The notes: a model not told the origin generated them from the letters alone. A stretch of DNA of 64,000 bases from Calditrichota bacterium (GCA_018644935.1 JABGPL010000002.1:20139-84138), one strand, 5' to 3'; counted from the stretch's first letter, positions 5,662 through 60,511 are shown. Numbers and translations are program-made.

Positions 5662-6714
5662 TTGGAGTATCTTTTGAACCGAATGAGTATCAGTCTGTTA
5701 AGTATTATCCTTTTGCTGTTTTTGGCAGAATCCGGCTACTCCTGGTATAGTAACCCTTATATCGAAAAAGCCAACCTCGATTTTCTCTTAATCCAACCCA
5801 ACAACCGAGCCTTAGGCATGGGAAATGCCTTCGTTGCCCTCGCTGATGATGCCTCTGCGACATGGTGGAATCCGGCGGGATTAGTGAAAACAAAATCTTC
5901 TGAGGTGATGATTTCCCATACCTTCGAAGTGCCGCCGCCCATTGTTGATTGTTTCGACCACAGTTATCTTTTTATTGCACGAACAAAACCGCTCGATGAA
6001 TCTACCGTGATTGCCTTAAGCGGAGTTCAGCATTTATGGGGGCATACAGAAAGACGATGTGAGCTTAATTCTGGTCAGAGCTTTAATCAATGGGATTATT
6101 CCGTGGCTTTTTCCTATGGAGTTAAAATCAATAAACAGTTCGCCACGGGACTTTCCGTAAAATATATAAACAGCCAAAAAGAAAGTGGGGGTGAATTAGC
6201 ACAAATCAAGCATCTCGCTTTAGATGCTGGAATGTTGTATAATACTGATCAATCTTCATCTTTTAAACACTCATTTGGATTGGTAATACGCAATATTGGA
6301 CCAAAATTCAGATATGGTGACAAGGAAGAATTCAAATCATTACCAACCAATCTCAATGTGGGATATGCATTAACCGCCATATCGAGAGTTGGACCTACAA
6401 ATGTTTTGTTTGATATAAATAAACGTCTGAACAAATTACAGATGGATACATTTTTTCGGAACTTCACTTATCATATGGGGATTGAAACATGGTTGGATGA
6501 TGTATTCGGAATTCGCGTTGGACAGTGGTTTGACAATATAGAGAGAGATTCGACTCTCTCACTTGGAGCTTCTCTCCGGATAAAGAAGCTAATTAAAACC
6601 AAAGAAGTTCAAATTGATTTTTCGCGCTATTTTCCCGGAAGGAAGCTAACCGGATACTCCAGTGTAGGCAAGTATGCATTTTCACTTGGCATTAGCCAAT
6701 CTGCGAGTAGTTGA
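5662..6714 (+). CDS. FadL/PorV-like outer-membrane beta-barrel protein (paralog 1 of 5)
   Basis: Signal peptide, then NRALGMGNAFVALADDASATWWNPAGL. This matches the FadL/OmpP1/TodX N-terminal motif ([25 protein letters not shown] in E. coli FadL). Amphipathic beta-strand pattern throughout. The true start is probably MSISLL near 5686. Confidence 0.55.
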   Translation: MEYLLNRMSISLLSIILLLFLAESGYSWYSNPYIEKANLDFLLIQPNNRALGMGNAFVALADDASATWWNPAGLVKTKSSEVMISHTFEVPPPIVDCFDHSYLFIARTKPLDESTVIALSGVQHLWGHTERRCELNSGQSFNQWDYSVAFSYGVKINKQFATGLSVKYINSQKESGGELAQIKHLALDAGMLYNTDQSSSFKHSFGLVIRNIGPKFRYGDKEEFKSLPTNLNVGYALTAISRVGPTNVLFDINKRLNKLQMDTFFRNFTYHMGIETWLDDVFGIRVGQWFDNIERDSTLSLGASLRIKKLIKTKEVQIDFSRYFPGRKLTGYSSVGKYAFSLGISQSASS

Positions 6715-6728
6715 ATTACATTTGATCT

Positions 6729-6968
6729 GGAGTGCTCAAGCCGTGCTTGAGCTTTAAGCGATCAAGCGAACTAATTTTAAAAATATTTGAGAAGTTATTA
6801 ACAAATAGCTCAAGCATGGCTTGAGCACTCCGGTGATTTGATAAATCAGTGTAAAATTCAGAGTACTCAGGCGTGACTTGAACTTTCACCGATCATGTGA
6901 ACTTATTTTCAAAAAGCTCAAGCATGGCTTGAGCACTCCTGTTATTAGATAAACTTGAGCACTCCGAA
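6729..6968. repeat. Cluster of three family-A MITE/REP-like elements plus a terminal fragment
   Basis: Copy 2 at 6729-6831 has intact TIRs (one C->G change). Copy 3 at 6860-6939 has a degenerate left TIR (agagtactcaggcgtgacttgaac) and an intact right TIR. A cttgagcactcc fragment sits at 6954-6965. All lie between convergent genes. Confidence 0.6.
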
Positions 6969-6972
6969 CTGA

Positions 6973-8088: not shown

Positions 8089-8126
8089 CTATAACAATGC
8101 TCGAAAGTATTTTCGTATTATTAACC

Positions 8127-8192
8127 GGAGTAGCGAAGCTTGCTTCGCGCTATAAATGTTATGGAAAGGCGCGAAGCAAGCTTCGCTACTCC
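8127..8192. repeat. Palindromic element, family B (24-bp inverted arms GGAGTAGCGAAGCTTGCTTCGCGC separated by 18 nt)
   Basis: Perfect inverted repeat read directly. The arms share the GGAGT terminus and the internal-hairpin architecture of family A but have a different palindromic core. It sits in a divergent intergenic region. Confidence 0.5.
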
Positions 8193-8428: not shown

Positions 8429-9661
8429 ATGAGGATTTGGGTTCGGTTTTTAGTTCTATTTATTGTTGTAGGGACTTCAGTTATCGGTGGGGATGCTTTC
8501 GCGTTGTCGAGCAAAAATCTCTATGAACTTAAATGCGGCAGGTGTCATGTTGCGTTTGAACCATCGGAGTTCACGGCACAGGAATGGCCGGGTATTGTCC
8601 GGTCTATGAAAGCTCAGGCTGCACTGACCGCTTCGGAAACTCAAGAGATAACGGAATATCTCGTTAATGCAAGCCAGGGTGAAGACTCAGAACACTCTGG
8701 AAACCGCCCAAGCTTTGGCGGGTATTTGTATACTGAATATTTCCAGTCTCCAAAAAAAATCAAGAACTTCGATATACATTATCTGGCTTTTCACATATCC
8801 GGCTGGGCAAGTGATAATATATCCTATTTTGGTGAGTTTGAGCTTGAACATGGTGGTAAAGGTGAAGATACTTTTGTCGAGCAGGCATTTCTCGACTGGT
8901 GGGTCAGACCGACAACAGCTGTAAAGATCGGTGCAATGCTGACACCGTTCAACCGCTTCGATGAATTCCACGATCCACTGATGAATTACCTCATTACCCG
9001 TCCACAGGTTTCGCGCGAACTCGGTGTGAGTGCGTGGAAAGAGGTTGGTGTTGACCTGCACGGATATTTCAATATTGCAGATACTGGCGTTCTATCTTAC
9101 GACCTATATACGATAAATGGTCTTGGGGAAGGTGATAATTTACGTAAGAGCCGTCAATACCGTGACAATAATGAGTCGAGGGCTTTCGGGGGAAGAGTTA
9201 ACTACGTCTTCAAGGACATGCTTGAGGCTGGAGCATCAATGTATCAGGGTGCCTGGGACGATGAAGCCGACTACAACTTGTCGATGTTTGGCGCGCATCT
9301 GATGATGCAGACTCCATTTGCGGAAATATTCGGTGAATATACCCAGGCAACCTCCGAAAACCCCGGTGATGTCGGTGACGGCGAAATGTCCGGATATTTC
9401 ATTCAAGCTTCACGACTGTTCAATGGCGCATATCGCCCGACTGTTCGCTACGGCATGCTGGATTACCTCGACGAAGGCGACAAACGCGGTCGCGATTCCG
9501 ACAATGGCAACAAGGATTTAACAGAACTGGCATTAGGTTTGTCTTACTATCCGACATCCAAAGTCGCTTTCAAATTTGAATATACGATATTCACCGAGGG
9601 CGACCGGATGGAAGAAGTTGACAACAATCAGATTGGGCTTCAGGCGGCGGTGAAGTTTTAG
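8429..9661 (+). CDS. Outer-membrane beta-barrel (porin-like) protein with an N-terminal CxxCH heme-binding motif
   Basis: Signal peptide. A single CGRCH motif sits within a ~70-aa N-terminal domain (ELKCGRCHVAFEPSEFTAQEWPGIVRSMKAQA). It is followed by ~330 aa of alternating hydrophobic pattern rich in Y/G/D and ending in a C-terminal Phe (AAVKF), as in OM beta-barrels. Confidence 0.45.
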   Translation: MRIWVRFLVLFIVVGTSVIGGDAFALSSKNLYELKCGRCHVAFEPSEFTAQEWPGIVRSMKAQAALTASETQEITEYLVNASQGEDSEHSGNRPSFGGYLYTEYFQSPKKIKNFDIHYLAFHISGWASDNISYFGEFELEHGGKGEDTFVEQAFLDWWVRPTTAVKIGAMLTPFNRFDEFHDPLMNYLITRPQVSRELGVSAWKEVGVDLHGYFNIADTGVLSYDLYTINGLGEGDNLRKSRQYRDNNESRAFGGRVNYVFKDMLEAGASMYQGAWDDEADYNLSMFGAHLMMQTPFAEIFGEYTQATSENPGDVGDGEMSGYFIQASRLFNGAYRPTVRYGMLDYLDEGDKRGRDSDNGNKDLTELALGLSYYPTSKVAFKFEYTIFTEGDRMEEVDNNQIGLQAAVKF

Positions 9662-9896: not shown

Positions 9897-12764
9897 GTGA
9901 GAATTGTCATGCTAAAAAGAACTCTATTTTTCGCCGTGATTATAGCAATCACAGCATCCCAAGTGCTTGCCCTAAACTTTGATCCCCCCTTAAATGAGGG
10001 GGTTGAGTTCCCCGTTACGAGAGTTGACGAAGTTAGTGAGGTCGTAATGATGGTTATGGAAAACGATGATCGTCGGCCTTCAAGAATTTTGTTCGGAGAA
10101 TTTCAAAATCAGGTATTCAGTGTTAATCCAGCACAATTTCAAATTGAGCCAGGTCAGCGGATTGAGGTAACTTTCACATTTGAACCTCGAGAGGGTGGAG
10201 TGGTAGAGGAAAGGGCCAGGGTTACAATTGCGACAGCGAACGGGAATATGGAAGTGAGGGAGTACCCGATTAGCGGTGAAGGATTTGCCGGTTTTCCTGA
10301 AATTCGAGTTGACCCAATGGATATTGAGTTGGCACTTGGTGCACTGGGTGAGCATGTTGAAGAGATCGTGTCTATTTCAAATGGTGGACTTGCGGATCTG
10401 GAATTTCAGATTGAATTAGATGAAGATGTTGAATGGCTATATGTTGAGCCAATGCAGAGTGTTGTTGAACCTGATGAAAGGATGGAACTGACTGTATCCA
10501 CCACAGATTTTGTGCCGGCGCAGGGGGAGTACTTAACCAGAATCCGTATCCACTCAAACGATCCTGAACAGGAATTAGTTGAAATGACAGTGCAGTTTAG
10601 TGTGGGTTTTGAACCGACACTGACATTAGATCCGGGTATGATCGAAGAACAACTCGGCATAGATGCAAATGTAGAGATCGCCATTGAAGCAACAAACACA
10701 GGCGATGCGGAATTAGCGTTTAATATTGAGCGGAAACTTATCGGAGATCAAAACGCCGCCCCGTGGGATGAAAGATATAATGTGAATTATCAGGAACACC
10801 TGGAAGACAATGGTTTGCAGGGAGTGGTATTTGCTGAAGGTTCCTTTTTCGTAGCCAGTTCAAATGGAAATGGTGAAAGGGGGAAGATCTACGAGTTAAC
10901 ACCCGAGGGTGAGGTCGTAAATGAGTTCGACCAGTTTGTCAATTCCCGTTATGGAATGCGTGATTTAGCCTATGATGGAAATCTGATGTGGGGTTTGGAT
11001 AGTGGTGTTCTATATGGATTTACCACTGCAGGTGAATTGGAAACAACAATTGAAGTTCCCGATAATCTCAGTGTCAGATGTCTCGCATATGATCCGGACA
11101 ACTCCATTTTCTGGCTAGGCAATATCACAAATGACTTTTTCGCAGTCGATCTTGAAGGAAACTTGATTCGAACCGTAGACAGAAACCGGGAACTCCGAGC
11201 ATATGGACTGGCGTACTGGGGGGATGATCCGGATGGTTATTGCCTTTATGCAACAACTCCCGGGGTTGAGCAGGACATTACCATTAGTAAAATCAACACC
11301 GAAAATGGGGACTTTGAAATTGTTACCGAATTATCCTGCGGAAGTACTCGTCCGAGTGGGATAGCCATCACGAATAGATTTGATGCACTAAGTTGGGTGT
11401 TGGTCGCTCTTGTTCAGACTCCGGATCGCGTAGCAGTTTGGCAGCTCGACTCCAATCTCGACTGGTTTACCATTGAACCGGAAAATGCTGCGCTTGAAGC
11501 AGGAGATTCGCAAGACCTTACTGTCACATTAAATACAACTGGACTTCCGGAGGGCGAGTTTGAAGCTCAGTTCGTCCTCACTTTGGACAACGCCGGTGGT
11601 CAGGTAATTCTGCCAGTTGCCCTTACTGTTCAGGCTGGTGGAGTTCAGGAACGGGTAATTGAATTGAATGTAGGATGGAATATGGTTTCAACTAATGTCG
11701 TCCTTGAGGATGATGATATTTTTGTAATTATGAGTGAACTGGTTGAAGCTGAGCAACTTCTCCTAATGAAAGATGGATCAGGAAGATTCTACAGCCCTGC
11801 ATTTGGTTTTAACAATATTCCCGGTTGGGATGTTGCATCGGGGTATTTGATTAAAATGAACGATCCAAGCGAGCTCACTTTAACCGGAATGCCTGTTATG
11901 TTCGATGAGCCTATTGATCTCGTGGAAGGTTGGAATATGACTGCATATTATCCGCGTGTACCTGTGGCTGATATGATTGCATTATTCGGAATTGTCGACC
12001 AGCTTATCATGGCAAAGGATGGGGCGGGACGATTTTACTCCGTCGATTTCAATTTCAGCAACATGGGTGACATGGTAGAAGGGAGCGGTTACCAGATAAA
12101 GGTCGAAGAGGATGTGGTGCTGATCTATCGACTCGAAGAGGAGGGTCAGCTAAACATGACTTCACCTCTGAGATCAGAAAATGATCTCCTAAGGCTATCT
12201 GACTCAAACATGAGTGTATTGGTATACTGTGAAAGTTCCTATTCAGGCAGTGTGAGCGCGTATTCGGGTGACTTGTTGGTGGGTACTGGTGAAGTAGTAA
12301 ACGGAACAGGCGGATTGGCAGTCTGGGGTGATGACCCAACTACACCAGAGAAAGAAGGTCTTAAGACCGGTGAATCATTTGAACTCAGGTTCGGAAATCA
12401 ATCCAGTTTCAAATCATATGAAACCTTACAGGGAAATGGATTGATATACGAGACCAATGCATTTACCGCCCTGAAGATAGAACAAAACCAGAACCTCCCC
12501 CAGGATTACTATCTATCCGAAACCTACCCAAACCCGTTCAACAACCGCACAACAATAAGCTACGGATTGCCGGAATCGGGTGAGGTTTCCATAGGCATTT
12601 TCGACCTGAACGGCAGATCAGTAGAAACCTTACTGAACCAGCAGATCACAGCCGGTCACCACTCAATTACCTGGAATGCTGAAGACATGGGATCAGGGAC
12701 TTATCTGGTTAAGATGCAGGCTGGTGAGTTTAGCAACATCAGAAAAGTTGTTATGATCAAATAA
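9897..12764 (+). CDS. Large secreted protein (955 aa) with T9SS C-terminal sorting domain
   Basis: Signal peptide MLKRTLFFAVIIAITASQVLA. C-terminus YPNPFNNRTTISYGLPESGEVSIGIFDLNGRSVETL...GTYLVKMQAG matches the T9SS CTD. Confidence 0.6.
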   Translation: MRIVMLKRTLFFAVIIAITASQVLALNFDPPLNEGVEFPVTRVDEVSEVVMMVMENDDRRPSRILFGEFQNQVFSVNPAQFQIEPGQRIEVTFTFEPREGGVVEERARVTIATANGNMEVREYPISGEGFAGFPEIRVDPMDIELALGALGEHVEEIVSISNGGLADLEFQIELDEDVEWLYVEPMQSVVEPDERMELTVSTTDFVPAQGEYLTRIRIHSNDPEQELVEMTVQFSVGFEPTLTLDPGMIEEQLGIDANVEIAIEATNTGDAELAFNIERKLIGDQNAAPWDERYNVNYQEHLEDNGLQGVVFAEGSFFVASSNGNGERGKIYELTPEGEVVNEFDQFVNSRYGMRDLAYDGNLMWGLDSGVLYGFTTAGELETTIEVPDNLSVRCLAYDPDNSIFWLGNITNDFFAVDLEGNLIRTVDRNRELRAYGLAYWGDDPDGYCLYATTPGVEQDITISKINTENGDFEIVTELSCGSTRPSGIAITNRFDALSWVLVALVQTPDRVAVWQLDSNLDWFTIEPENAALEAGDSQDLTVTLNTTGLPEGEFEAQFVLTLDNAGGQVILPVALTVQAGGVQERVIELNVGWNMVSTNVVLEDDDIFVIMSELVEAEQLLLMKDGSGRFYSPAFGFNNIPGWDVASGYLIKMNDPSELTLTGMPVMFDEPIDLVEGWNMTAYYPRVPVADMIALFGIVDQLIMAKDGAGRFYSVDFNFSNMGDMVEGSGYQIKVEEDVVLIYRLEEEGQLNMTSPLRSENDLLRLSDSNMSVLVYCESSYSGSVSAYSGDLLVGTGEVVNGTGGLAVWGDDPTTPEKEGLKTGESFELRFGNQSSFKSYETLQGNGLIYETNAFTALKIEQNQNLPQDYYLSETYPNPFNNRTTISYGLPESGEVSIGIFDLNGRSVETLLNQQITAGHHSITWNAEDMGSGTYLVKMQAGEFSNIRKVVMIK

Positions 12765-13897: not shown

Positions 13898-16800
13898 CTA
13901 CCTGACCGCATAATACTTCCCTTCCTGATGATGAAACACAACCGCAGAAACCGAGCTTTCCGGACTCATCATCATACCTTCGGTCAGTGAAACACCTATG
14001 CGTTCTGGTTTTAGGAGGTCGAACAATGGGCGTTGGTCAGCGAGGTCGGGGCACGCGGGGTAGCCGAAGGATAGGCGAATGCCTCTGTATTTGGTTTTGA
14101 ACTGGTAGTCGAGATCGGTATCCTGCGGATCGGGGATTCCCCACTCCCGGCGCATTCTTATATGTACCCACTCGGCGGTGGCTTCGGCGAGTTCGATGGC
14201 TACAGCCTGCAGGATCATTGAGTCGAGTAACCTGCCCTCGGCTCGCATTTCTGCGGCGCGATCAATAGTGTCTGTTCCTGATGTAGTTACGAATAGACCA
14301 ATGGAGTCTCCGCCCAATCGTGGTGGACGAAGCCAATCTGCTGCACAGGTGCCTGTGTCTCCCTTTTCACGGGGGAAATTGAAGGTTACAGTGTCTATTG
14401 ATCCCGGGACAGTGACTTTGATTATATCGGTGCCGGGGCTTGCCGGGAACCAGCGGTAGAGTGCTCGGGGGGAAAGAATTCCCGCTTTTCGACCTTCCGC
14501 TGCAACCGTTTTTATCCGTTTCTGGAGGTCAATCAGCTTTGTGTCGTTCGGGTCTTTCATTCTTGCTTTTAACTTCGTGACACCGAGGTGTTTTCCGAGC
14601 AGCATCTGGGGGTTGATCAGGTCAAAGACTTCGTCAAAGGGGAGCTCCTTAAGGATGTGCTCTTCGTAATCGGGTGGTTCGGGCACTTCGCTTTCTATCC
14701 ACACGGAGGAGACAGGCTCTTTCTTTGCTTGAGGTTTCGCTGGTTTTACAGCTTTCGCTTTTTCCGTCCGTTTTACTGCATCAGCTTGTTGTTGAGTGAT
14801 TAACTCTGCGAGTTTTTCCGGCACAACTATTTTATTAGCCAGACCCAGCCCCTGCATTGCGTCGGATGCGTAGAAGGTCGGGGATTCATATGCGGGAGCT
14901 ATCTGGGTTTCAACAAATTTTTTAGTTAATGCAGCTCCACCGACCAGCATCGGCAGCTTGATCCCGGCAGCATTCAAATCCTCAGCAGTTGCTACCATCT
15001 GATGCGCACTGCGAACAAGTAAACCCGACAGCCCGATCATTGCGGGGTTATGTTCAGCAACAGCTTCAATCAGCTTTGCCGGAGGAACCTTTATCCCAAG
15101 GTTGATGATTTCAAAACCGTTGTTTGACAGTATCATGTCAACGAGGTTCTTGCCAATGTCGTGGACATCCCCTTTGACTGTCGCGATCAACATCTTACCC
15201 TTGATTGCCACTGACTCACCCGGTGGGAAGTACGGGCGGATGAAATCGACGGCGGCTTTCATGACCTCCGCCGATTCGAGAACTTCGGCTACAATAAGAC
15301 GATTATCCCCGAACAGTGTCCCGACCTCATCCATCCCTGCCATGAGTGGTCCGTTAATCAGATCAAGCGGACTCATCTTTTCGAGCATTTCAGCGAGGTT
15401 GATCTCCAGTCCTTCCCGGTTGGCTTCGACAACAGCTCTCGATACCTTCTCAGGAGTGGTAAGTTCTGCCCATTCGTCTTCGGTCGATTGGGGTGATACA
15501 TCCCGGAAGCGTGTGGTGAAATCCATGATTGATTTATTGTCACCGGTCAGGAGAAGGTTTTCTGCCAGTTTTCGGTCTTCGTCAGAAATGGTTGGGTATC
15601 GTTTCAAACCCTCTGTGTTCACGATTGCCAGATCAAGCCCGGCTTTTGCGCATTTATACAGAAAAACGGAGTTGACTACTTCACGACCTGCGGGAGGTAG
15701 TCCGAATGATACATTTGAAATCCCGAGTAATGTCAGGCAGTTTGGGAATCTTTCCTTTATCGCTTTGGTGCCCTGTATGGTTGCTTCGGCTGTGCCGAGA
15801 TATGCAGGATCGCCAGTTGCAGCTGGGAAGACCAGGGGATCAAAGATTATGTCACCTTCGGGAATTCCGAATTCTGTAGTGAGTATTCCATGGATTCTCT
15901 CAGCGATCTCCAGTTTGCGCTCAACTGTCGTCGCCATGCCCTGTTCAGGATCTTCGTCGATAACACCACAGACGAGTGATGCACCATATTTTCGAGCCAG
16001 TTCCGCAACGTAGCGCAGGCGTTTTCCACCATCCTCGAGGTTGACGGAATTTATTGCTGGTTTTCCGCCGATATTCTTCAGCCCGGCTTCGACAACCTTG
16101 GGGTCAGTAGTGTCCATCATTATGGGGACACGTACCTTGCGAAGTAGCGGACGAAGCACTCCTGTAAAATCTTCGAGCTCGTCCCGGTCGGGATTGGCAA
16201 CGCACAGATCAATGACCATTGCGCTCTTCTTAACCTGCTTACGGCCAATTTCGGCAGATGCATCCCATTTTTCCTGTGAGACGAGGCGTTTAAATTTCCG
16301 GCTGCCGATAGTGTTCGTTCTTTCCCCGACGAAAACGGGACGGTTGTCATCTTCAACGACCATTGCCTCAGCTCCAGCAAGGGCAGGAAAACGTCCGTCT
16401 TTAACCGGTATCCTCGGAGGAATGCCACGAATAACTGAGCAAACCGCACTGATATGTTCGTTTGATGTTCCACAACAACCACCGATGATGTTTACAAATC
16501 CGTCGTTGGCAAACCGCTCGATTATTTTGCTGAACACTTCAGGAGTATCTGTATACTTACCCTCTGTATTCGGCAACCCGGCATTGGGCCAAGCGGACAC
16601 AGGGAAACGTGATATCTGTGAAAGTGTTCGCAGGTGGTCTGTCATTGCTGCGGGACCAGTTGCACAGTTTAAGCCGATAGAGAGGAGATCAAAATGGCAG
16701 ATGGAGTGGTATAAAGCCTCGATGTTCTGCCCGGCGAGCATCGTCCCGTTGGGTTCAATGGTCACAGAAACTGAGACAGGAGCTTCGCGATCAAGATCTT

Positions 16801-17368
16801 TCTGAGCTGTCTCAATCCCGAACAATGCTGCTTTCAGGTTAAGCGTATCCTGAGTTGTCTCGAGAAGCAGTATATCGGATCCTCCTTCGAGTAGGCCTGA
16901 AGCATAAATTCGGTATACTTCAACGACTTCATCAAACGTAATTCCACCAGTAACAGTTATCGGTTTGGTTCCTGGTCCCATTGATCCGGTAACAAATACG
17001 CGTTTGTCCATTGCATATTCAGCAACAGCTCGATTTGCCAGTTGTGCGGATTTGCAGGCGATTTCTCTTGAACGCTCAGCAATACCATATTCAGCCAGAA
17101 CTGTTGGCGAGCCGTTGAAGGTGTTGGTGAAGATCAGGTCTGAGCCAGCTTCAATGTATAAGCGATGTAGTTGAACAACCATGTCCGGGGCATGAACATT
17201 AAGCATTTCATTGCACCCGCTGAACTCCTCCCCTCCGAAATCTTCATCTGTCGGATTCATCCATTCGAGGGCGGTTCCGGTGGAACCGTCAGTGGCAAGG
17301 ATTCGCTCTTGTAATAATTGTTTCAGAAGAGCTTTATTTTTGATATCTTCTTGTCGATTAATTGCCAT
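13898..17368 (-). CDS. metH: Cobalamin-dependent methionine synthase
   Basis: 1156 aa. Homocysteine-binding domain (ILATDGSTGTALE...GGCCGT), pterin-binding domain, B12-binding domain (DVHDIGKNLVDMILSNNGFEIINLG) and a C-terminal AdoMet activation domain. Confidence 0.9.
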   Translation of the reverse strand: MAINRQEDIKNKALLKQLLQERILATDGSTGTALEWMNPTDEDFGGEEFSGCNEMLNVHAPDMVVQLHRLYIEAGSDLIFTNTFNGSPTVLAEYGIAERSREIACKSAQLANRAVAEYAMDKRVFVTGSMGPGTKPITVTGGITFDEVVEVYRIYASGLLEGGSDILLLETTQDTLNLKAALFGIETAQKDLDREAPVSVSVTIEPNGTMLAGQNIEALYHSICHFDLLSIGLNCATGPAAMTDHLRTLSQISRFPVSAWPNAGLPNTEGKYTDTPEVFSKIIERFANDGFVNIIGGCCGTSNEHISAVCSVIRGIPPRIPVKDGRFPALAGAEAMVVEDDNRPVFVGERTNTIGSRKFKRLVSQEKWDASAEIGRKQVKKSAMVIDLCVANPDRDELEDFTGVLRPLLRKVRVPIMMDTTDPKVVEAGLKNIGGKPAINSVNLEDGGKRLRYVAELARKYGASLVCGVIDEDPEQGMATTVERKLEIAERIHGILTTEFGIPEGDIIFDPLVFPAATGDPAYLGTAEATIQGTKAIKERFPNCLTLLGISNVSFGLPPAGREVVNSVFLYKCAKAGLDLAIVNTEGLKRYPTISDEDRKLAENLLLTGDNKSIMDFTTRFRDVSPQSTEDEWAELTTPEKVSRAVVEANREGLEINLAEMLEKMSPLDLINGPLMAGMDEVGTLFGDNRLIVAEVLESAEVMKAAVDFIRPYFPPGESVAIKGKMLIATVKGDVHDIGKNLVDMILSNNGFEIINLGIKVPPAKLIEAVAEHNPAMIGLSGLLVRSAHQMVATAEDLNAAGIKLPMLVGGAALTKKFVETQIAPAYESPTFYASDAMQGLGLANKIVVPEKLAELITQQQADAVKRTEKAKAVKPAKPQAKKEPVSSVWIESEVPEPPDYEEHILKELPFDEVFDLINPQMLLGKHLGVTKLKARMKDPNDTKLIDLQKRIKTVAAEGRKAGILSPRALYRWFPASPGTDIIKVTVPGSIDTVTFNFPREKGDTGTCAADWLRPPRLGGDSIGLFVTTSGTDTIDRAAEMRAEGRLLDSMILQAVAIELAEATAEWVHIRMRREWGIPDPQDTDLDYQFKTKYRGIRLSFGYPACPDLADQRPLFDLLKPERIGVSLTEGMMMSPESSVSAVVFHHQEGKYYAVR

Positions 17369-19466: not shown

Positions 19467-20363
19467 TTAAATTTTCATCCCCAATCCAACCCGCCAGGTA
19501 GTGCCAAGGTCATTTTCAAAGGGCGTAATCGCGAAATCCGCGTTAAACTGATTAAAAATAAATCCCAATCCACCGCTAAAATTTCGGCTGTCGTGACCTG
19601 CCATGTAGCCAGCTCGGGCGTATATTCGATCTGACCAGTTACTTTCCAATCCGAAATGATAATACTTATGTTCTTCTCTCTCAGCTATCCCATCAATTGC
19701 AAAGATTAAATTGACAGGTCCTACCTGGTAATCTTTAGACATTCCGAGTCGATAGGTTGTCGGATAAGCGTCATCTCCGGGACTTTCAAAACCAGCATTA
19801 GCTATAGAGAAACCAAAGTTAAAGTCATCGGTTTTAAGGAGAACTCCTAAATCGAGAATGTTCCAGACATCCAGACGGTCACCGAATATATCTTCGTATC
19901 CGCCTTTGTAAACAACTCCAAAAGATAGTTTTTCCGCAGGATGGTAAGCAATTCCCGCGCCGAGTACTACCTGCCTGAGTGTGAATTCTCCCTGTGGATC
20001 ACCGGGACGGTCGCGGACCTCAAATCCCTCTATTCCGTGATTAACGTAATAAGCGGCAACACCTCCCCAATCTGTCTGTAGATGTGCTCCACCGAAGCTA
20101 CCACTGCCATCTTCTATCCACTTAAATCCCTGAAACCAGAAGCCGGTATGACTCTGACCTATGTGAGCTGGATTCCACCAGGCAGCAGAGGCATCACGAG
20201 CATGGCTGACGCCGGTTTCACCCATTGCGATTTCACGTGTGCCGTTTGGAATAGACATAAAAGCCCAGCCTGTTGCAGCATTAGAATATGTGCTGCTAAG
20301 TCCCATCAGCAATGTGCAAATTATAAGAACTCTGATCGAATTCATAGTTTCCTCAAAATCCAA
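19467..20363 (-). CDS. FadL/PorV-like outer-membrane beta-barrel protein (paralog 2)
   Basis: Signal peptide, then IAMGETGVSHARDASAAWWNPAHIG (a FadL-type N-terminal motif) and a C-terminal aromatic-rich barrel. Confidence 0.5.
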   Translation of the reverse strand: MDFEETMNSIRVLIICTLLMGLSSTYSNAATGWAFMSIPNGTREIAMGETGVSHARDASAAWWNPAHIGQSHTGFWFQGFKWIEDGSGSFGGAHLQTDWGGVAAYYVNHGIEGFEVRDRPGDPQGEFTLRQVVLGAGIAYHPAEKLSFGVVYKGGYEDIFGDRLDVWNILDLGVLLKTDDFNFGFSIANAGFESPGDDAYPTTYRLGMSKDYQVGPVNLIFAIDGIAEREEHKYYHFGLESNWSDRIYARAGYMAGHDSRNFSGGLGFIFNQFNADFAITPFENDLGTTWRVGLGMKI

Positions 20364-24408: not shown

Positions 24409-24659
24409 TGTTTTAACCAATATGACCTTTGAAATGTTCCGGAATTGCGTGGATTTGAGTTTCACAGACATTCCTGACTCGTTAGCGTTTAAAAGTCTAA
24501 TAATAACGGCATATTCAACTGCCGACCGAAAGAAAGCTTTTCGGTATGTTTTTGATAAAGTAAAAACTCTAACGAACTTGCCCGTTAACCTCAAGATAAG
24601 GGATTGAAGAAATGCGTAATCCTAAAGATAAAGAAAATTTACTTTAAAAACAAGATATT

Positions 24660-47448: not shown

Positions 47449-47684
47449 TGAAATTGCCTTTACTTGTTTTCAAACTTTATGTCTTTGACCGGATATGCAA
47501 TCCCGTGCATGTCACATTAGTATCTGTAGATTGATACATAAGAACTTCGGGAAAATAGCTTGCCAGTAAATTGACTTTTACTTGAGCTTTCTAATTTATC
47601 CATTTATTTTCGTTAAGTCAAGAGGTGTTTTTAATTTCCTCAAATCATACATACGATTGTAAGCAATATCCGCGGAGGTTTTGG

Positions 47685-50084
47685 ATGAAGGTTGCATTAT
47701 TATCTCTTTCGCTGATATTCACACTTACAAGTTGCGCATATTACAATTACTTGTACAACGCAAAACAATCTTACGCTGAGGGTGAAGAAAAGCGTCGCGA
47801 GCAGATTGACGAACCTCAATCAGGAAAGAAAAAAAAGGCTCCTAAAGAATTTCAAAACGTCATTGAATCTGCAGGACGCATGTTAGATTTTTATCCAGAC
47901 AGCAAATGGGAAGAAGAAGCACTCTTTCTTCTCGCGAAAGCCTATTATCGAACCGGTAAATTTAGAAATTCTATTGGCAAAGTTGATGAGTTACTTGGGA
48001 AATACCCGGACACGTTTTTTACAAATGAAGCAATATTGTGGAAAGGAATGTCACTGTTTCATGTTGTACAGCCTGACTCTGCCCGTCAATTACTGACCGG
48101 GTTGATCATGCCCGATATTACTCCCGATATTCAAGCTCAAGCCTTCATGGCAATGGCGGATTATTATTTCGAAAATGAGAAATGGTCACCTGCTATCCTT
48201 GATTATCGAAAGGCCCTTGAGTCCGGAACCGATGATGAATGGCTGAAAGGACAAGCCCTGATAAAGGTCGGGGATTGTATGAAGCAGCTTGGATTGAAAG
48301 AGGAAGCTCTCGATTTGTACGAGGATGTTTTGTCAACGAGACAATCCAGTGCGTTTAGATTCAAGGCTGTTTTTCAACTCGCGAAGGTGAAGGCGGATCT
48401 CGGACGTTACGAGGATGCATTCAAGGACTTTAAAAGTCTTTTGAGGAAGGGAGCGTTTCTTGATGAATTTCCAAGGGTTGAGCTTGAAATGGCTCGCTGT
48501 GAGATAAATCTTGGGGAGTACGAGAACGCACATGACAGGCTTGAAAAACTAATTGAAGCGAAATCGAGAGGTCCTGTTGCAGCAGAAGCTCAATATGAAT
48601 TAGGGATGATTCACTGGTTTCAAAAACGTGATTTGAAATCAGCCATTATTGCCTTTAATGAAGTAAAAACTGCAGAGCGGTCATCCCCGCAGGCTGAACC
48701 GGCAGATTCGATGGCAGCCAGGATTGAAAAACTCAGTCGGTACTGGATGAGTCTGAAACACTTCCGTCATCAGCAGACTCGGATTGATAGTGTTAAAATG
48801 AATCTGGCAGAGATCTTCCCCAATGACACCACGTTCGTTGATTCCATTGAAATAATGCTGAATGAAGGAAAGAAAGAACGTAAATCTCGAAAAGATTTTA
48901 AGTCACGCGACGATCCTATGTTACGGATGATCGAAGAAGCCAAAAAGGCAGAGGCAGAAGAAAATGCCCGTCTAATGGATCTTGACACCCTTGAAGTAGC
49001 AGAATCCGATTCGGTTAAATCGCTTGATTCCACGGCAATCGCAGAATTTGAAATCAGCTTGAAAATGCGGGAAAGACAGGTACTTTCCGAACTCGGGAAC
49101 TTTTACTTCTTCATCCCCTCTGAGAGAGATAGCTCGATTTCCTATTTCCAAATGATTTCAAAAATGGAACCCTTCGATGACGTTTGGGGAAGTGCAGTGA
49201 CTTCGCTTGCATATTTCGAGAAACTCCTTGGTGATACTGCAAGTTATGATTCTCTATTGAACGTAATCATCGGAAACCTGAGTGATGGCAGTTCTTTTGA
49301 AAAAGCCAACAGAGCCCTCGGGCTAACCGATGATGAGATTGAAATAGACAGCCTTGAGATTCAGTATCAGGAGGCTGAAGATTTCTGGTTCGCTACAAAT
49401 AATCCGGTTGCTGCAAGAGAGCGATATCTGAACGTGGCAAATAGCACGGATTCTACATCCACTGTTCGAGCTCGTGCTCTGCTTGCAGCGGCATATTTGT
49501 CAGTATTTAAAATCGGTGAGGATACAATCGCCGGAGACTTTTACAAAATTGTAATGGAAGAGTACCCCAAAACCGATTATGCCAGGAGTGCGCGAGAAAT
49601 ACACAATAGATTCGGTGAACCCGGAGACCAACCTTTTGGGGAAGAAGAGGAAGGATTGAATGATAAATCAAAGCCACCCCCTGTTGATCCTTACTTCGAG
49701 GAAGATGAATTTGGAGGGAGCGGTATCTATGACCGATTTGAGATTGATCCGGATCTTGATGACGAGGAAGTTTTCGAGCCGGATCGCGTGGATGAATTGC
49801 CTGATTTGATTACATCTCCTAACACTATTAGGAATCTGACGCGAAGTAATTATCCTTTTGAGGCAATGAGTGATAACATTAGGGCCATTGTTGAGCTCGA
49901 GTTTGTTGTTGGAGCAAGAGGAGAGATTCGAGATATAGAAGTTGTTAGCGAAAATCCAGAAGAAAAGGGATTTGGTAAAGCGGCAATGATTGTATTGATG
50001 GAGCTCGAATACGAACCGGGTTGGTATCGGGGACGACAGGTCGCCATAAAGATAAAACAGGAAATTATTTTTGATTCAATTTAG
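47685..50084 (+). CDS. TPR-repeat lipoprotein with C-terminal TonB-like domain
   Basis: GGAGG RBS, then MKVALLSLSLIFTLTSC lipobox. Multiple TPR-like helices. The C-terminal ~90 aa (AIVELEFVVGARGEIRDIEVV...GWYRGRQVAIKI) resemble TonB_C. Confidence 0.6.
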   Translation: MKVALLSLSLIFTLTSCAYYNYLYNAKQSYAEGEEKRREQIDEPQSGKKKKAPKEFQNVIESAGRMLDFYPDSKWEEEALFLLAKAYYRTGKFRNSIGKVDELLGKYPDTFFTNEAILWKGMSLFHVVQPDSARQLLTGLIMPDITPDIQAQAFMAMADYYFENEKWSPAILDYRKALESGTDDEWLKGQALIKVGDCMKQLGLKEEALDLYEDVLSTRQSSAFRFKAVFQLAKVKADLGRYEDAFKDFKSLLRKGAFLDEFPRVELEMARCEINLGEYENAHDRLEKLIEAKSRGPVAAEAQYELGMIHWFQKRDLKSAIIAFNEVKTAERSSPQAEPADSMAARIEKLSRYWMSLKHFRHQQTRIDSVKMNLAEIFPNDTTFVDSIEIMLNEGKKERKSRKDFKSRDDPMLRMIEEAKKAEAEENARLMDLDTLEVAESDSVKSLDSTAIAEFEISLKMRERQVLSELGNFYFFIPSERDSSISYFQMISKMEPFDDVWGSAVTSLAYFEKLLGDTASYDSLLNVIIGNLSDGSSFEKANRALGLTDDEIEIDSLEIQYQEAEDFWFATNNPVAARERYLNVANSTDSTSTVRARALLAAAYLSVFKIGEDTIAGDFYKIVMEEYPKTDYARSAREIHNRFGEPGDQPFGEEEEGLNDKSKPPPVDPYFEEDEFGGSGIYDRFEIDPDLDDEEVFEPDRVDELPDLITSPNTIRNLTRSNYPFEAMSDNIRAIVELEFVVGARGEIRDIEVVSENPEEKGFGKAAMIVLMELEYEPGWYRGRQVAIKIKQEIIFDSI

Positions 50085-53642: not shown

Positions 53643-53643
53643 T

Positions 53644-55611: not shown

Positions 55612-55630
55612 GTTGTTTTGATACAAAAAT

Positions 55631-55730: not shown

Positions 55731-55762
55731 TTTGCAATTTCGAAGGAAGACAATATTTTTTT

Positions 55763-58243
55763 ATGACAAATCAAAAAACTGACTTGTCCGATATTACTTT
55801 GAATAAACCTTCGATACGTCTGGGTGAGGTACATTTCCCAGAACCTCCACATGGAGGCTATACCTACCGCCTTCCGAATTCCATTTTTTCCGCAAAAGAA
55901 GGTTCACGAGTCAGAGTTCCTTTTGGTCATACATCAAGAGTTGGTTTTCTAGTAAAAGTTTACTTAGGACCCGATGACGATAAATTTAAGAACATCAGTC
56001 ATCTAATTGATGATGTACCGATGTTCTCTCCTGAACTGCTTTCTCTAACTGAATGGACCGCGAATTATTACCTCTGTGATTGGGGAGAGGTGTTACTCGC
56101 CGCAATGCCATCTGGATTAAAACCCAGAAATTTGGCCACCTATAAACTCTCAGACGAAGGTCTGTTGGAAACTCTTGCAGGAGAGGGCAGCTCTCTTACT
56201 GCTCAGCTCTGGCGAAGACTGAAGGAAAAGCCACTTTCCCTGAAGAAAATTCGCACTGAATTTGATAGCGGAGAGGAAAGTCTTCGCAAGCTCCAACATA
56301 GAGGTTGGATTGAAACGGTTGTTTCTGATGCCCCACGTATCGCCCCACGTATGGACATTCTTTATGAATGGACTGAAGAAGTGAGTTACGAAGCAGCCAT
56401 GCAAGATCTTCGTAAGAACGCAACTAAGATGCACTCTGCTCTCAAACTTCTTGAGGAAAATGAGGGTAGATTATCTGGGGCATTCCTGAGCAAGACATCA
56501 AAGGGTATGCACCCGACAATGCGGACATTTTTAGAACGAGGTTGGCTGGAAGCGAAGGAAATTCCTTTTTTATATGAAGATGCACTCGAACAGGGATTAA
56601 CAGAAACCTCAACCGGATCTGCTGAATTGACGGATGATCAGGTGCGGGTAATCAATTCTCTTACAGAAGCTCTTAAGGAAGAAAATCCAAAAACGTTTCT
56701 TCTGCATGGTGTGACTGGCAGCGGTAAAACAATGGTCTATCTTGAAATAGTTGAGGCAGTTCTCGCCCAGGGAAAGACTGCGATAATGATGGCTCCCGAA
56801 ATATCGCTGACTCCTCAACTCACCGGAAGGTTTTATCGACGTTTTGGTGATCTTGTTGCACTGAGTCACAGTCGAATGTCATCAGCCGAACGTCGAGAAA
56901 TCTGGCTTAAAGCAAAATCCGGTCAAGCGCGTGTTATCATCGGTCCCCGCTCTGTAATATTTTCACCCGTCGAGAATCTTGGTGTCATTATCGTTGATGA
57001 AGAACACGAAGAGAGTTACAAGCAGGTCGATCCTGCACCCCGCTATAATGCTCGTGATGTCGGGATTTATCGTGCACGCAAATGTGGTGCAGTATCTTTA
57101 GTTGGATCTGCAACACCCGATGTAGCAAGTTATTTTAATGCAAAAGTCGGTCGCTACCGTTTGATCGAGCTCACAAATCGATACAGTGGGATTGAACTCC
57201 CACCCGTTTGGGTAGTTAAATGGGGTATCGGAAAGGAGGGATCGTTATTTTGCCCAAAATTACTCAAGAAAATCGAAGAACGACTCGAGCTCAACCAACA
57301 GACAATTATCCTGATCAACCGTAGAGCGTTTTCTACAAGCATATATTGTCCTGATTGTGGTGATATAGCGGAATGCCCCAATTGCGACATATCCCTTAAA
57401 TACCATAGCACAGGTCAAAAGCTCGAGTGTCATTACTGCGGTTTTAGTGAAGCAGTATACGATTTGTGTCCGAAATGTAATGGAAAGAGATTAAGATTTA
57501 AGGGACTTGGTTCTCAGCGAGTTGAGAAAGAGTTGAACCGCCTATTTCCACAAGCTCGAATAGCCAGGATGGATCAGGACACCACCCGTCGAAAGGGCTC
57601 ACATCGCGATTTACTCGAACAATTTGCTCAGCGAAAGCAGGACATTTTACTCGGCACCAAAATGGTTGCCAAAGGGCATGATTTCCCCGGCGTAACACTT
57701 GTAGGGATATTAATGGCAGACGCGGAATGGCACATGCCGGATTTCCGTGCACAGGAAAGGGCATTCAGGCTATATGTGCAGGCCTCGGGGCGAGCTGGTC
57801 GAAGCAGTGCCGGTGAGGTCGTTATCCAATCCTGGGAGCCCCAGGAGAGTGTTCTGAGGTGGATTCAACAGCATGATTTTGGTTCACTGTTTAACGCTGA
57901 AATTGGATCACGAAAGAGTCTCCAGTATCCACCGTTTAGTAAATTGTTAACGATTCTCGTTAAAGGGTTGGAGCCTGAACTCGTTGAGGAGGCTGCTCAA
58001 TCGCTTCGTCAGCAGCTCGATGAGAAGTTGCAGGTTAGTATCATTCTTGGTCCGGCACCACCATTGATTGAGAGAGTCGAAAACACATTTAGACGACGGA
58101 TATTACTAAAACTTCCCCAGAGAGTCACAACTCCAGTAAGAGAGGAGAAAAAGAGGATTAGAAAAATAGTGGATAAGTTTCGCAAGAAAATGAGGAAAGA
58201 TAAGGTCAGTTTCGTAATAGATGTAGATCCGGTTGAAGTTTAA
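55763..58243 (+). CDS. priA: Primosomal protein N' (replication restart helicase)
   Basis: Helicase motifs HGVTGSGKT, DEEH, and a Cys-rich zinc-binding insert (CPDCGDIAECPNCDISLKYH...CHYCG). Confidence 0.85.
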   Translation: MTNQKTDLSDITLNKPSIRLGEVHFPEPPHGGYTYRLPNSIFSAKEGSRVRVPFGHTSRVGFLVKVYLGPDDDKFKNISHLIDDVPMFSPELLSLTEWTANYYLCDWGEVLLAAMPSGLKPRNLATYKLSDEGLLETLAGEGSSLTAQLWRRLKEKPLSLKKIRTEFDSGEESLRKLQHRGWIETVVSDAPRIAPRMDILYEWTEEVSYEAAMQDLRKNATKMHSALKLLEENEGRLSGAFLSKTSKGMHPTMRTFLERGWLEAKEIPFLYEDALEQGLTETSTGSAELTDDQVRVINSLTEALKEENPKTFLLHGVTGSGKTMVYLEIVEAVLAQGKTAIMMAPEISLTPQLTGRFYRRFGDLVALSHSRMSSAERREIWLKAKSGQARVIIGPRSVIFSPVENLGVIIVDEEHEESYKQVDPAPRYNARDVGIYRARKCGAVSLVGSATPDVASYFNAKVGRYRLIELTNRYSGIELPPVWVVKWGIGKEGSLFCPKLLKKIEERLELNQQTIILINRRAFSTSIYCPDCGDIAECPNCDISLKYHSTGQKLECHYCGFSEAVYDLCPKCNGKRLRFKGLGSQRVEKELNRLFPQARIARMDQDTTRRKGSHRDLLEQFAQRKQDILLGTKMVAKGHDFPGVTLVGILMADAEWHMPDFRAQERAFRLYVQASGRAGRSSAGEVVIQSWEPQESVLRWIQQHDFGSLFNAEIGSRKSLQYPPFSKLLTILVKGLEPELVEEAAQSLRQQLDEKLQVSIILGPAPPLIERVENTFRRRILLKLPQRVTTPVREEKKRIRKIVDKFRKKMRKDKVSFVIDVDPVEV

Positions 58244-59256
58244 TGACCATCTTCTCTTACACTCGAAACTACTTTTTCCGAGCGATGGTTATTTTTGTGT
58301 TTCTCGGTCTTTTTTGTAATTATCCACTAAATGCAAGGATATTTAACTTAGATCCGTTCGTTTACTACTATGATGGAGTGGATAGCAATAAGGTAATAAA
58401 TAACCTCGATCAGAAACTCAAATCAAAACTCCCTGAGCTGGAATCACAGCTCGGTGTGAAGTTCAGCGGAAAAGCTGGAATCCATCTTACTCAGACTCGT
58501 GAAGAGTTTTACCGGGTGACTCGGGGGCGTGCTCCGGGATGGGCTGGTGGGATTGCTTATTCGAGTCAGCGCAAAGTAGTTGTGAAGTCGCCACTGTTTT
58601 TTGGGCAGGGTGTATCATTGGAAGCTCTGACAACCCACGAGATTACTCATTTAATACTCCACGAAGCCACGAGCGGGAACTACCTGCCCCGTTGGCTCGA
58701 AGAAGGATTGTGCATGATTCTTGCCGGAGAATCTCGAAGCGGATCGCTTGCGAGACTTGGCAGGGCTGCCGCTGCCAGTCGATTAATGGGATTGCCTCGT
58801 GTTGATGATGTTCTTCGATTTTCTGCACCTCAAGCGGATCTTGCTTATTCCGAATCGCGTTCTGCTGCGGTCTACCTGATTGATAGATTTGGTTGGCAAG
58901 CTGTGCGGGACATACTCAAATACGTCAGAGCTGATCGAGATTTTGAAGAGGCTTTTTCCATCGCAACGGGTGTTGAATATGAGCCCTGGCAGGTGGAATG
59001 GATAGAATATGCTCTTAACCGGTATCGTTGGGTGTTTCTTCTCGATATTGACAATTTAGTTTGGTTTTCGATAGTCCTGCTGGGAACAGTTGTTATGATT
59101 ATGGCATATGTTAGGCAGAGACGGCAGATGCGGGCGTTATTAGAAGAAATGGAGGACGACGATGAGTATTTTCCAGAATATGATACCGATGAATTTCGAA
59201 AAAAATCAGAAGAACACCCCGAAGAGGACGAATGGGAGACTCCCTACAAATGGTAA
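58243..59256 (+). CDS. HExxH gluzincin-like (peptidase MA clan) protein with C-terminal TM helix and acidic tail
   Basis: HEITHLILHE ... RWLEEGLCMILAGE. One predicted TM (FSIVLLGTVVMIMAYV). The C-terminus is D/E-rich. Confidence 0.4.
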   Translation: MTIFSYTRNYFFRAMVIFVFLGLFCNYPLNARIFNLDPFVYYYDGVDSNKVINNLDQKLKSKLPELESQLGVKFSGKAGIHLTQTREEFYRVTRGRAPGWAGGIAYSSQRKVVVKSPLFFGQGVSLEALTTHEITHLILHEATSGNYLPRWLEEGLCMILAGESRSGSLARLGRAAAASRLMGLPRVDDVLRFSAPQADLAYSESRSAAVYLIDRFGWQAVRDILKYVRADRDFEEAFSIATGVEYEPWQVEWIEYALNRYRWVFLLDIDNLVWFSIVLLGTVVMIMAYVRQRRQMRALLEEMEDDDEYFPEYDTDEFRKKSEEHPEEDEWETPYKW

Positions 59257-59467
59257 TGATAGTTTTCAAACTAAAGGCATTTAATGATTGGTGTTGTTAA
59301 TAATTAATTATGCTATATTATTAGTACACCTTGAGCAACCCGTCAAAGGGTTTGTCCAAGAGCTCATTTAACGCACTATAACTGTAACAACATGGCAGAC
59401 GAGGCTGTCTGCCAGCGCGAAATGATCATTTTCGGACATCCCGAGCGAGTCATCCTTCTAAAGAAGG

Positions 59468-60511
59468 TTGTGTTTCGGTAGACACGGTTGTGATAACGTA
59501 AAGGAAATTATGTTTACTACAACAGGAAGAAATTTGCGTGCGAGCGTTATCGTTATGCTGTTGATTGTGTTTTCGACCAGTCTATTTGCAGCAGGTCGAA
59601 CAGCTTTCCCCGTTGCAAAAACACTAATGACACCACGCAGCCTGGCACTTGCAGGTGCAGCTATCGCCGATCAAACGTGGGCGGGTGGTGCAGGTTTGAA
59701 CCCAGCCTCTGGTGTTAATGGGGAGCGTCAAGCGGGGTTTTCTTACGCGCGCCATTCACTGGACCTATGGAGTGGTCAACTCTCTGCATCTTTCCCAATA
59801 CCGGACAATCGATATGTTTTAACCAGCGGTTTTTACCTATCGACGTTCAATTTCGGTGAGTTGGAGAAAAGCGAACGGGACCTTGGATTAACAGGTGAAA
59901 CCTTTACTGCTGCAGAATATGTTTTTGCCGGTTACATGTCGGGTGCAGTGAATGATATCGTGACATGGGGATTATCTCTGAAGTATCTTTATGGAGAGCT
60001 TGATGAAGAAAGTGCATCAGGAGGAGCAGTAGACATTGGTGTAACCTGGGATACCGGATGGCACAACATCCGACTTGGGGCTGTAGGTCGAAATCTTGGG
60101 AAGCAATTCAGTGGATATGGGTCGGAAGAAGATCCAATGCCTTCTGAACTAATGATCGGAGGCTGTAGAACTCTTGACCACATGCCTATGACGTTACATA
60201 TCGCGGCAATATTTGCAGCGACAGGAGAAGAAGATTGGACGGTTGAGGAGTTGAAAGGGAATCCTGGGTTTGGATTCAGCGCCGGGAGTGAGTTCAGCAT
60301 TAATGCCGAAGGGTTGAATAAACCTGTTTTTGTGCGTTTGGGATATCATAGCAGAGGAACCGGAATGCAGACTGGACAGAGCCTTGATGCTATTGCTGGA
60401 CTGACATTTGGATTGGGCCTAAATATGGGTGCGTTCGATTTTGATTACACATATGCACCATTGGGCGCACTTGGGGATGTGCACAGGTTCGGAATAATAG
60501 GAACATACTGA
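59468..60511 (+). CDS. FadL/PorV-like outer-membrane beta-barrel protein (paralog 5)
   Basis: Signal peptide (the real start is likely MFTTTG near 59510), then RSLALAGAAIADQTWAGGAGLNPASG, C-terminal ...RFGIIGTY. Confidence 0.5.
   Translation: MCFGRHGCDNVKEIMFTTTGRNLRASVIVMLLIVFSTSLFAAGRTAFPVAKTLMTPRSLALAGAAIADQTWAGGAGLNPASGVNGERQAGFSYARHSLDLWSGQLSASFPIPDNRYVLTSGFYLSTFNFGELEKSERDLGLTGETFTAAEYVFAGYMSGAVNDIVTWGLSLKYLYGELDEESASGGAVDIGVTWDTGWHNIRLGAVGRNLGKQFSGYGSEEDPMPSELMIGGCRTLDHMPMTLHIAAIFAATGEEDWTVEELKGNPGFGFSAGSEFSINAEGLNKPVFVRLGYHSRGTGMQTGQSLDAIAGLTFGLGLNMGAFDFDYTYAPLGALGDVHRFGIIGTY

Follow-up and report, generated by a model that had tools for sequence, protein, structure and literature searches.

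A stretch of 64,000 nucleotides of DNA from a Calditrichota bacterium (GCA_018644935.1, JABGPL010000002.1:20139-84138; hereafter the window) carries five genes for small outer-membrane barrels related to FadL and PorV, which we label A through E. The part of this collection that appears most worth following, judging from the sequence, is the tandem pair formed by C and B, which lies at the end of a four-gene operon (X-Y-C-B) whose first two genes encode a putative lipoprotein (X) and a secreted beta-propeller protein (Y). We favor, with moderate confidence, the interpretation that the window holds a diversified PorV/PorQ toolkit of a Calditrichota species bearing a type IX secretion system (T9SS), together with a lineage-specific C/B pair that would serve Y and X. 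The five barrels are not five equivalent cargo shuttles. This interpretation is based on the family membership of the barrels, the folds modelled for C (a barrel) and for Y (PorZ-like), the conservation of the operon, and its frequent location just downstream of sprA. The barrel family and its annotation were already known, and it is the X-Y-C-B operon that appears to be new; a literature search revealed no description of it, and it is apparently undescribed.

The four genes of the operon reside on the minus strand. The first, X (23062-24594, with a true start probably near 24300), encodes a protein with Ig-like repeats and the lipobox LVSGC. Y (21505-23052) encodes a protein with a signal peptide, and is followed by C (20353-21384, where the open reading frame (ORF) extends to 21405 and an ATG is present at 21384) and by B (19467-20345, where the ORF extends to 20363 and an ATG is present at 20345). 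Successive genes are separated by 9 nucleotides, by about 100 to 120 nucleotides, and by 7 nucleotides or a small overlap. From this arrangement, C and B are tightly spaced and are predicted to be co-transcribed with X and Y as a single unit. Orthologs of X yield scattered matches to Ig-like domains, with no Pfam family common to more than two of the 19 orthologs and no relative in the PDB. Because of this lack of a Pfam family or PDB relative, the proposals that X belongs to a known family, or that it is a recognizable substitute for PorU, were rejected.

Y matches the Reg_prop, BNR, and FlgD_ig domains weakly, with an FlgD_ig-like domain at its C-terminus that exhibits the pattern YAYPSPFSP...GVYFYRVKV, similar to that of the C-terminal domain (CTD) of T9SS substrates. 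Its last ~90 amino acids match the CTD portions of the NCBIfam models for PorZ (E=1.2e-5) and PorU (E=7.7e-5), and do not match TIGR04183. An AlphaFold2 (AF2) model of Y, generated from an alignment of 64 sequences, comprises one beta-propeller and a beta-sandwich of ~97 amino acids, with a predicted local distance difference test (pLDDT) value of 90.1. When this model was compared with the PDB by using Foldseek, the top match was PorZ from Porphyromonas gingivalis (5M11, E=1.9e-15), followed by the sensor propellers BT4673 and BT4663. PorZ and PorU have CTDs of the long (96-108 amino acids), uncleaved kind (PMC11285876). At least 959 homologs of Y were found, all of which are unnamed. Given this number of homologs, the PorZ-like fold, and the frequent proximity to sprA, Y looks like a component of the secretion system rather than an ordinary cargo protein. 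The modelled fold of Y resembles that of PorZ, but Y scores too low for membership in the PorZ family.

Conservation of the operon was evaluated by a scan with the Y alignment, using one genome per species, which returned 527 confirmed matches, of which the best 80 loci were analysed. For the ORFs of these 80 loci, scores were obtained both from hidden Markov models (HMMs) based on the alignments of C, D, and Y and from single-sequence searches, and each denominator given below counts the loci with enough flanking sequence. Some of the loci belong to records that bear the label Calditrichota or Calditrichia, KSB1 or LCP-89; the others belong to numerous unclassified metagenome-assembled genomes (MAGs). 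A barrel of the PorV/PorQ family is encoded downstream of Y, in the same orientation, at every locus (72/72), within 400 bp in 67 of them, and two barrels are present at 60 of 65 loci. X is found directly upstream of Y at 53 of 74 loci by single-sequence search. Moreover, a SprA homolog is encoded upstream on the same strand, at a distance of 1.5-4.6 kb, at 20 of 56 loci; at one of these (L042) the SprA protein scores 832.8 bits with TIGR04189, for which the cut-off is 200.

The order X-Y-C-B is maintained at 30-50% identity across two loci from different records. On a Calditrichota contig (L009) all four genes recur at 36-50% identity, and the B ortholog (45%) again follows that of C directly. 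In a MAG labelled Fidelibacterota (L010), Y, C, and a barrel gene are located directly downstream of a gene for a SprA_N protein. When barrels of this module from other lineages were scored with the PorV/PorQ family model NF033709, five of the eight tested passed and two more fell just under the cut-off, and the second barrel of the module in other lineages scores best on the PorQ model.

Several additional features of these loci were observed. Between sprA and X, relatives encode an M28-type peptidase (~300 amino acids), a protein of ~290 amino acids, and a protein of ~310 amino acids; the sprA-M28 arrangement is present at L042 (6678-9379), L054 (5987-8690), L010 (4603-5532), and similar loci, and the peptidase might be a glutaminyl-cyclase-like enzyme, although this is a guess. 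At four loci (L041, L044, L046, and L072) the gene order varies, with a C-like barrel ~1.2-2.3 kb upstream of Y and a B-like barrel alone after it. The C-like ORF is ~470-530 rather than ~330 amino acids long at L038 (11515-12999), L053 (5580-7169), L045 (11550-12968), L049 (11511-12983), and L085 (11415-12866), which could reflect either an added domain or an artefact of start codon choice. A second barrel was not detected at L038 and L053. Just downstream of the module lies a gene for a divergent polysaccharide deacetylase (Polysacc_deac_2) at L009 (11459-12559) and L010 (9880-10977). In the window, genes for MTHFR and MetH follow barrel B instead: a homocysteine S-methyltransferase-MTHFR fusion (17372-19270, minus strand) lies immediately downstream of B, and directly after it comes the gene for a full-length B12-dependent methionine synthase (13898-17368, minus strand).

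The original prediction placed five FadL/PorV-like genes in the window, and both this count and the family assignment were confirmed. An ORF call recovered A (5662-6714, plus strand), B (19467-20363, minus), C (20353-21405, minus), D (30845-31840, plus), and E (59468-60511, plus). The curated cut-off of the NCBIfam model NF033709 (PorV/PorQ family protein) is 90 bits, and the scores of the five are 158 for A, 97 for B, 90.4 for C, 96.2 for D, and 98.3 for E, such that all reach the cut-off, C barely so. Within the window, custom HMMs prepared from the homologs of C and D retrieve all five of these ORFs and nothing else. On the basis of these profile scores, A through E are ordinary members of the known PorV/PorQ branch of the FadL superfamily, and no unrelated porin family was indicated. 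A protein 100% identical to D carries the NCBI name 'PorV/PorQ family protein [Calditrichaeota bacterium]', and therefore the family assignment is already present in public annotation; a gene identical to D also resides in MAG GCA_018675255.1.

Other aspects of the proposed family portrait required revision. A common N-terminal motif (G.G.A..A..D[DA].[SA]A..WNPAG) had been attributed to all five genes. It is literally present in A, but a six-frame search matched the gene at 5662 alone, and the literal motif was therefore rejected as a diagnostic of the group. A relaxed version adds D (30845), and in B, C, and E all that is left is a degenerate G-rich stretch ahead of NPA. All five proteins do possess a hydrophobic N-terminus, as in a Sec signal peptide, and the G-rich segment leading to NPA. 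The genes had also been described as an expanded set, which is not borne out if recent expansion is meant. In local alignments A through E are pairwise 20-29% identical, and BLASTP finds no significant similarity for some of the pairs, whereas B, C, D, E, and Y share 38-57% identity with their orthologs from other species. These values indicate that the duplications predate the diversification of the lineage, and thus that the five are ancient paralogs.

The barrels were likewise proposed to be unusually short. With their likely ATG starts they are 292-343 amino acids long, and they are indeed shorter than FadL and than PorV (402 amino acids for the PorV chain in 6H3I). However, they are of normal size relative to the NF033709 (326 positions) and PorQ (335 positions) models, and they are not truncated. 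An AF2 model of C, the copy chosen for prediction of strand number, was produced from an alignment of 36 sequences (pLDDT 82.8) and exhibits a helical, plug-like N-terminal segment and 14 long strands. With the plug and 14 long strands in place, the shortness probably lies in the loops and not in absent strands. The best Foldseek matches of the C model are two PorV chains from F. johnsoniae (8gl6_F and 6h3i_F, E=2e-11, TM-score 0.62). TodX and FadL come after PorV, and chains of the Bacteroidota machinery for beta-barrel assembly (the BAM complex) are also among the matches. A search with the C profile against solved structures likewise identified PorV (6h3i_F, E=9.5e-9).

Barrel A (5683-6714, plus strand, likely ATG at 5683 in an ORF that opens at 5662) is the most PorV-like of the five. 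It is the only one to pass the Pfam PorV model PF19572 (55.7 bits, cut-off 27), and it has the best score with the PorV equivalog NF033710, although this score (95.6 bits) is well short of the cut-off of 250. As a single sequence, A matches F. johnsoniae PorV (6h3i_F, E=1.3e-9). The divergently oriented neighbor of A (4186-5022, minus strand) matches LVIVD repeats and the type A CTD models Por_Secre_tail/TIGR04183. It lacks a signal peptide, and the 639-bp spacer on its 5' side is 33% GC and contains stop codons in every frame. Because of these features, the ORF is probably a 5'-truncated gene remnant. The neighbors of the five barrels are as originally described, except that the gene beside A looks like a remnant.

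Barrel D (30851-31840, plus strand, 96.2 bits as given above) is PorV2-like, but it reaches only 136.1 of the 325 bits needed for the PorV2 equivalog NF052325, with coverage of the N-terminal half alone. A literature search found no account of PorV2; the one T9SS paper that it returned mentions the term a single time. D is located directly after a gene for an LptD_2-type LptD (28080-30734, plus strand, PF19838 321 bits) and heads the block YicC-Gmk-RpoZ-CoaBC-UDG-DnaB. The order lptD-D-YicC-Gmk-...-DnaB is retained at 52% identity (L011), and lptD also directly precedes D at L001 and L013. At 40% identity (L012), D is still first in the YicC block and lptD is absent. Further D orthologs come from records with the labels Eisenbacteria, Gemmatimonadota, and Balneolales. 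The Eisenbacteria-labelled ortholog (L006) adjoins LapA/LapB and glycosyltransferase genes, the Balneolales ortholog (L007) lies among housekeeping genes, and another (L008) is one gene upstream of a SurA-like rotamase. Adjacency to lptD is absent in these three cases, and at L008 the 754-amino-acid product of the upstream gene is not LptD. Consequently, lptD-D as a conserved functional pair was rejected, because it holds at 52% identity and is gone at 40% and in other phyla. No CTD-bearing neighbor of D was observed in the window or at any ortholog locus examined.

Barrel E (59510-60511, plus strand, in an ORF that opens at 59468) is the most PorQ-like, with an end-to-end match of 121.9 bits to the PorQ equivalog NF033711 that falls short of the cut-off of 220; the other barrels score 39-56 bits with this model. 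Upstream of E lies a gene for a membrane-anchored peptidase of the Peptidase_MA_2 family (58243-59256, plus strand, PF13485 56 bits), with the sequence HEITH...EEGL, a signal or anchor at its N-terminus, and a transmembrane helix at its C-terminus. Downstream is a multipass inner-membrane protein (60550-61386, plus strand) with no family match, in which a zinc-ribbon pattern (CxxC...CxxC) precedes hydrophobic helices. The E ortholog group is small, with 12 representatives at E<=1e-30, and its loci were located by a scan across metagenomes with an alignment of five sequences. The order ABC, PriA, Peptidase_MA_2, E, zinc-ribbon inner-membrane protein, and periplasmic binding protein is retained down to 38% identity, and the zinc-ribbon protein also follows E at L096, L099, L101-L107, and L112. 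No CTD-bearing neighbor of E was found in the window or at the ortholog loci examined, where the adjoining genes encode inner-membrane proteins.

A second peptidase-MA-like protein with an HExxH...(E/G)EGL pattern is encoded one gene before D (27109-28005, plus strand). The proposal that the proteins at 27109 and 58243 are clear paralogs was rejected, since BLASTP gives no match and the HExxH...EGL pattern is shared by eye alone. Between the two peptidase-barrel pairings, only that of 58243 with E is shown to be conserved.

PorV/PorQ barrels of Bacteroidota adopt a 14-stranded FadL fold, and act as carriers or anchors that bind the CTD of surface proteins rather than as channels. One account (PMC10994853) describes PorV docking at the lateral opening of SprA, binding cargo CTDs via long extracellular loops, and carrying type A cargo away from SprA. 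The attachment complex consists of PorU, PorV, PorQ, and PorZ (PMC8754138). BamG, a 14-stranded FadL homolog, is a fixed BAM subunit bound to BamA that holds a surface lipoprotein via its loops (PMC12578637). These cases of PorV, the attachment complex, and BamG indicate that, within this group, FadL-fold barrels repeatedly serve to anchor surface proteins.

With this background, the favored interpretation assigns distinct putative roles to the barrels. A would be a candidate for a PorV-type general carrier, E would be a PorQ-type copy, and D would be a PorV2-type core copy inside a housekeeping block. Y would be exported via Sec and then via SprA, and we infer that its CTD is retained, uncleaved, and docks on C and/or B. 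Y, the barrels, and X might then form a fixed surface module that takes the part played in Porphyromonas by the attachment complex of PorZ-PorQ (and PorU-PorV).

The likeness to these known systems is incomplete. The window barrels share with PorV of the F. johnsoniae SprA translocon (6H3I and 8GL6) the NF033709 family, the 14-stranded FadL-type fold with plug, and the NPA motif, and PorV is what A and the C profile match best in sequence, and what the C model matches best in structure. However, they are 50-100 amino acids shorter, apparently with shorter loops, have no porU neighbor, and belong to a host in Calditrichota rather than Bacteroidota. Similarly, the PorQ-PorZ system of P. gingivalis (with PorU-PorV) resembles the operon in that a CTD-bearing propeller protein is paired with barrels of the PorV/PorQ family, and the best scores of E and of the second module barrel elsewhere are with PorQ. 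The operon differs in encoding two barrels and a lipoprotein together with Y, its members do not reach the PorZ and PorQ cut-offs, and no PorU sortase was identified.

Some of our findings weigh against the favored interpretation. SprA is absent from the 10 kb upstream of Y at 36 of 56 loci, and it is not encoded in the window. None of the five barrels reaches the equivalog cut-offs for PorV (NF033710, 250 bits), PorQ (NF033711, 220 bits), or PorV2 (NF052325, 325 bits), and therefore the sub-type labels denote the nearest model only, which is PorV for A, PorV2 for D, and PorQ for E, and is ambiguous for B and C. The score of Y with the PorZ model NF052228 is 24 bits, compared with a cut-off of 260, with coverage of the CTD part alone. 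Y has one propeller whereas PorZ has two, and its TM-score to 5M11 is low (0.29-0.40). By homology it is E, not B or C, that is most PorQ-like, and thus C and B are only candidate partners of Y. No PorU-like sortase turned up in the window or beside the module, though no search aimed at PorU was made. Finally, the synteny of D and E inside one lineage could be mere inherited gene order with no functional meaning.

A more ambitious version of the interpretation is possible, though we regard it as doubtful. In this version, X-Y-C-B would be an undescribed, SprA-linked, four-protein surface module of the non-Bacteroidota phyla (Calditrichota, KSB1, and Fidelibacterota) of the Fibrobacteres-Chlorobi-Bacteroidetes (FCB) group. 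It would constitute a compact T9SS attachment complex wherein two dedicated PorQ/PorV-like barrels hold the one-propeller, PorZ-like Y through its retained CTD, and X replaces the PorU-type partner. D might, as a further possibility, be an LptD-associated, BamG-like protein.

An alternative that we consider unlikely is that some or all of the five, and especially D and E, are FadL-type uptake channels for hydrophobic molecules unrelated to secretion. Spirochaetes hold multiple FadL-like UPF0164 paralogs, which offers a parallel. Weak UPF0164 matches were obtained for A, D, and several D orthologs, and D and E lie amid housekeeping rather than secretion genes. Like FadL, TodX, TbuX, and UPF0164 proteins, the window barrels have the superfamily fold with an N-terminal plug segment and the conserved NPA. 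However, with the FadL/Toluene_X model PF03349 (gathering threshold 29.7 bits) A scores 20.7 bits and the other four have no match, whereas the PorV/PorQ scores of all five are well above these values. The barrels are also shorter than FadL-type channels, the context of B and C is secretion-related, and PorV outranks TodX and FadL in the structural comparison with C. Furthermore, with SprA in related genomes and CTD cargo in the window, the lineage would need PorV-type carriers.

For D specifically, a role as structural partner of LptD or of a lipopolysaccharide- or BAM-related complex, parallel to BamG in the Bacteroidota BAM, seems quite unlikely. The position of D right after lptD in the window and at L001, L011, and L013 speaks for such a role, as do the LapA/LapB, glycosyltransferase, and SurA-like neighbors of other orthologs, and BamG provides the precedent of a 14-stranded FadL homolog on BamA that acts as a fixed subunit holding surface lipoproteins through its loops (PMC12578637), with BAM chains also present among the structural matches of C. 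These points are countered by the loss of lptD adjacency at L012, L006, L007, and L008. With the BamG model NF053685, A and C alone give matches, of an insignificant 13-13.5 bits compared with a cut-off of 250, and D gives none; there is no bamA neighbor, and the best model for D is the T9SS-labelled PorV2.

The original prediction proposed that each barrel serves the adjoining cargo gene as its own dedicated shuttle or attachment partner, an arrangement that would resemble that of SprF/PorP-type proteins and neighboring type B CTD cargo in Bacteroidota. We now consider this very unlikely in its general form. A dedicated barrel partner is strongly supported for the tandem pair alone, since B and C accompany the CTD-bearing Y without exception and the gene order is conserved. 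A also adjoins a CTD ORF, one of three type A CTD genes in the window, and a precedent exists in the non-PorV carriers of type B substrates described in PMC10994853. The sprB-sprF arrangement, in which an outer-membrane partner is encoded directly beside its secreted protein, resembles that of Y and its barrels. However, D and E have no CTD neighbor, and A faces a truncated remnant. Only two of the five barrels in the window directly adjoin a CTD-type gene, which is non-significant by a rough binomial estimate. The SprF/PorP proteins constitute another family, given that only B matches the PorP/SprF model PF11751, at 14.6 bits compared with a gathering threshold of 22.3, and the CTD of Y is type A/FlgD_ig-like rather than type B. 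The number of its homologs, its fold, and its location near sprA also fit Y better as a machine part than as cargo.

Beyond the module, the HMMs from the homologs of C and D identified one match in 1.3 Mb of related-lineage DNA, compared with which three extra copies in 62 kb are unusual (rough Poisson P ~3e-5), a value that is indicative only because the 1.3-Mb sample is not independent of the module. It is highly improbable that the five copies are a coincidence in a genome with many such genes, sharing no function except as outer-membrane barrels, since this density and the clearly non-chance linkage of B and C to Y outweigh the low identity of the copies and their spread among unrelated housekeeping genes.

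Most of the window encodes housekeeping functions, including MetH, MTHFR, LptD, YicC, Gmk, CoaBC, DnaB, Fmt, RsmB, IMPDH, PyrD, PriA, and others. Besides the ORF at 4186-5022, the type A CTD ORFs are a cargo protein at 23-1945 (plus strand, Por_Secre_tail/TIGR04183 30.5 bits, cut-off 23) and a cargo protein with Ig-like repeats at 9897-12764 (plus strand, Por_Secre_tail 44.9 bits, TIGR04183 39.7 bits). An Rfam scan of the window returned no RNA families. In the protein encoded at 8429-9661 (plus strand), a dihaem cytochrome c domain at the N-terminus (DHC, 30.4 bits) is joined to a porin barrel of the Gram-negative type (Porin_4, Porin_O_P), and the protein may be an outer-membrane cytochrome-porin fusion. 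Another ORF, at 47625-50084 (plus strand, 819 amino acids), begins with a YfiO/BamD-like region, contains many TPR repeats, and ends in a TonB_C domain, which is an unusual architecture for an envelope protein.

To our knowledge, nearly all that is understood of type IX secretion stems from Bacteroidota, and our literature search found no paper on the T9SS in Calditrichota, KSB1, or other FCB candidate phyla. The Calditrichota and KSB1 phyla have SprA and a conserved operon encoding a mini-PorZ-like protein, two barrels of the PorV/PorQ family, and a lipoprotein. For annotators, a caution emerges in that the name 'PorV/PorQ family protein' spans at least five old sub-families here with differing contexts, and therefore should not by itself be read as denoting a cargo shuttle. 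The X-Y-C-B operon offers a compact, co-encoded model for the anchoring of CTD-bearing machine parts on FadL-fold barrels, and it gives a handle on what is ancestral in the attachment complex of Porphyromonas.

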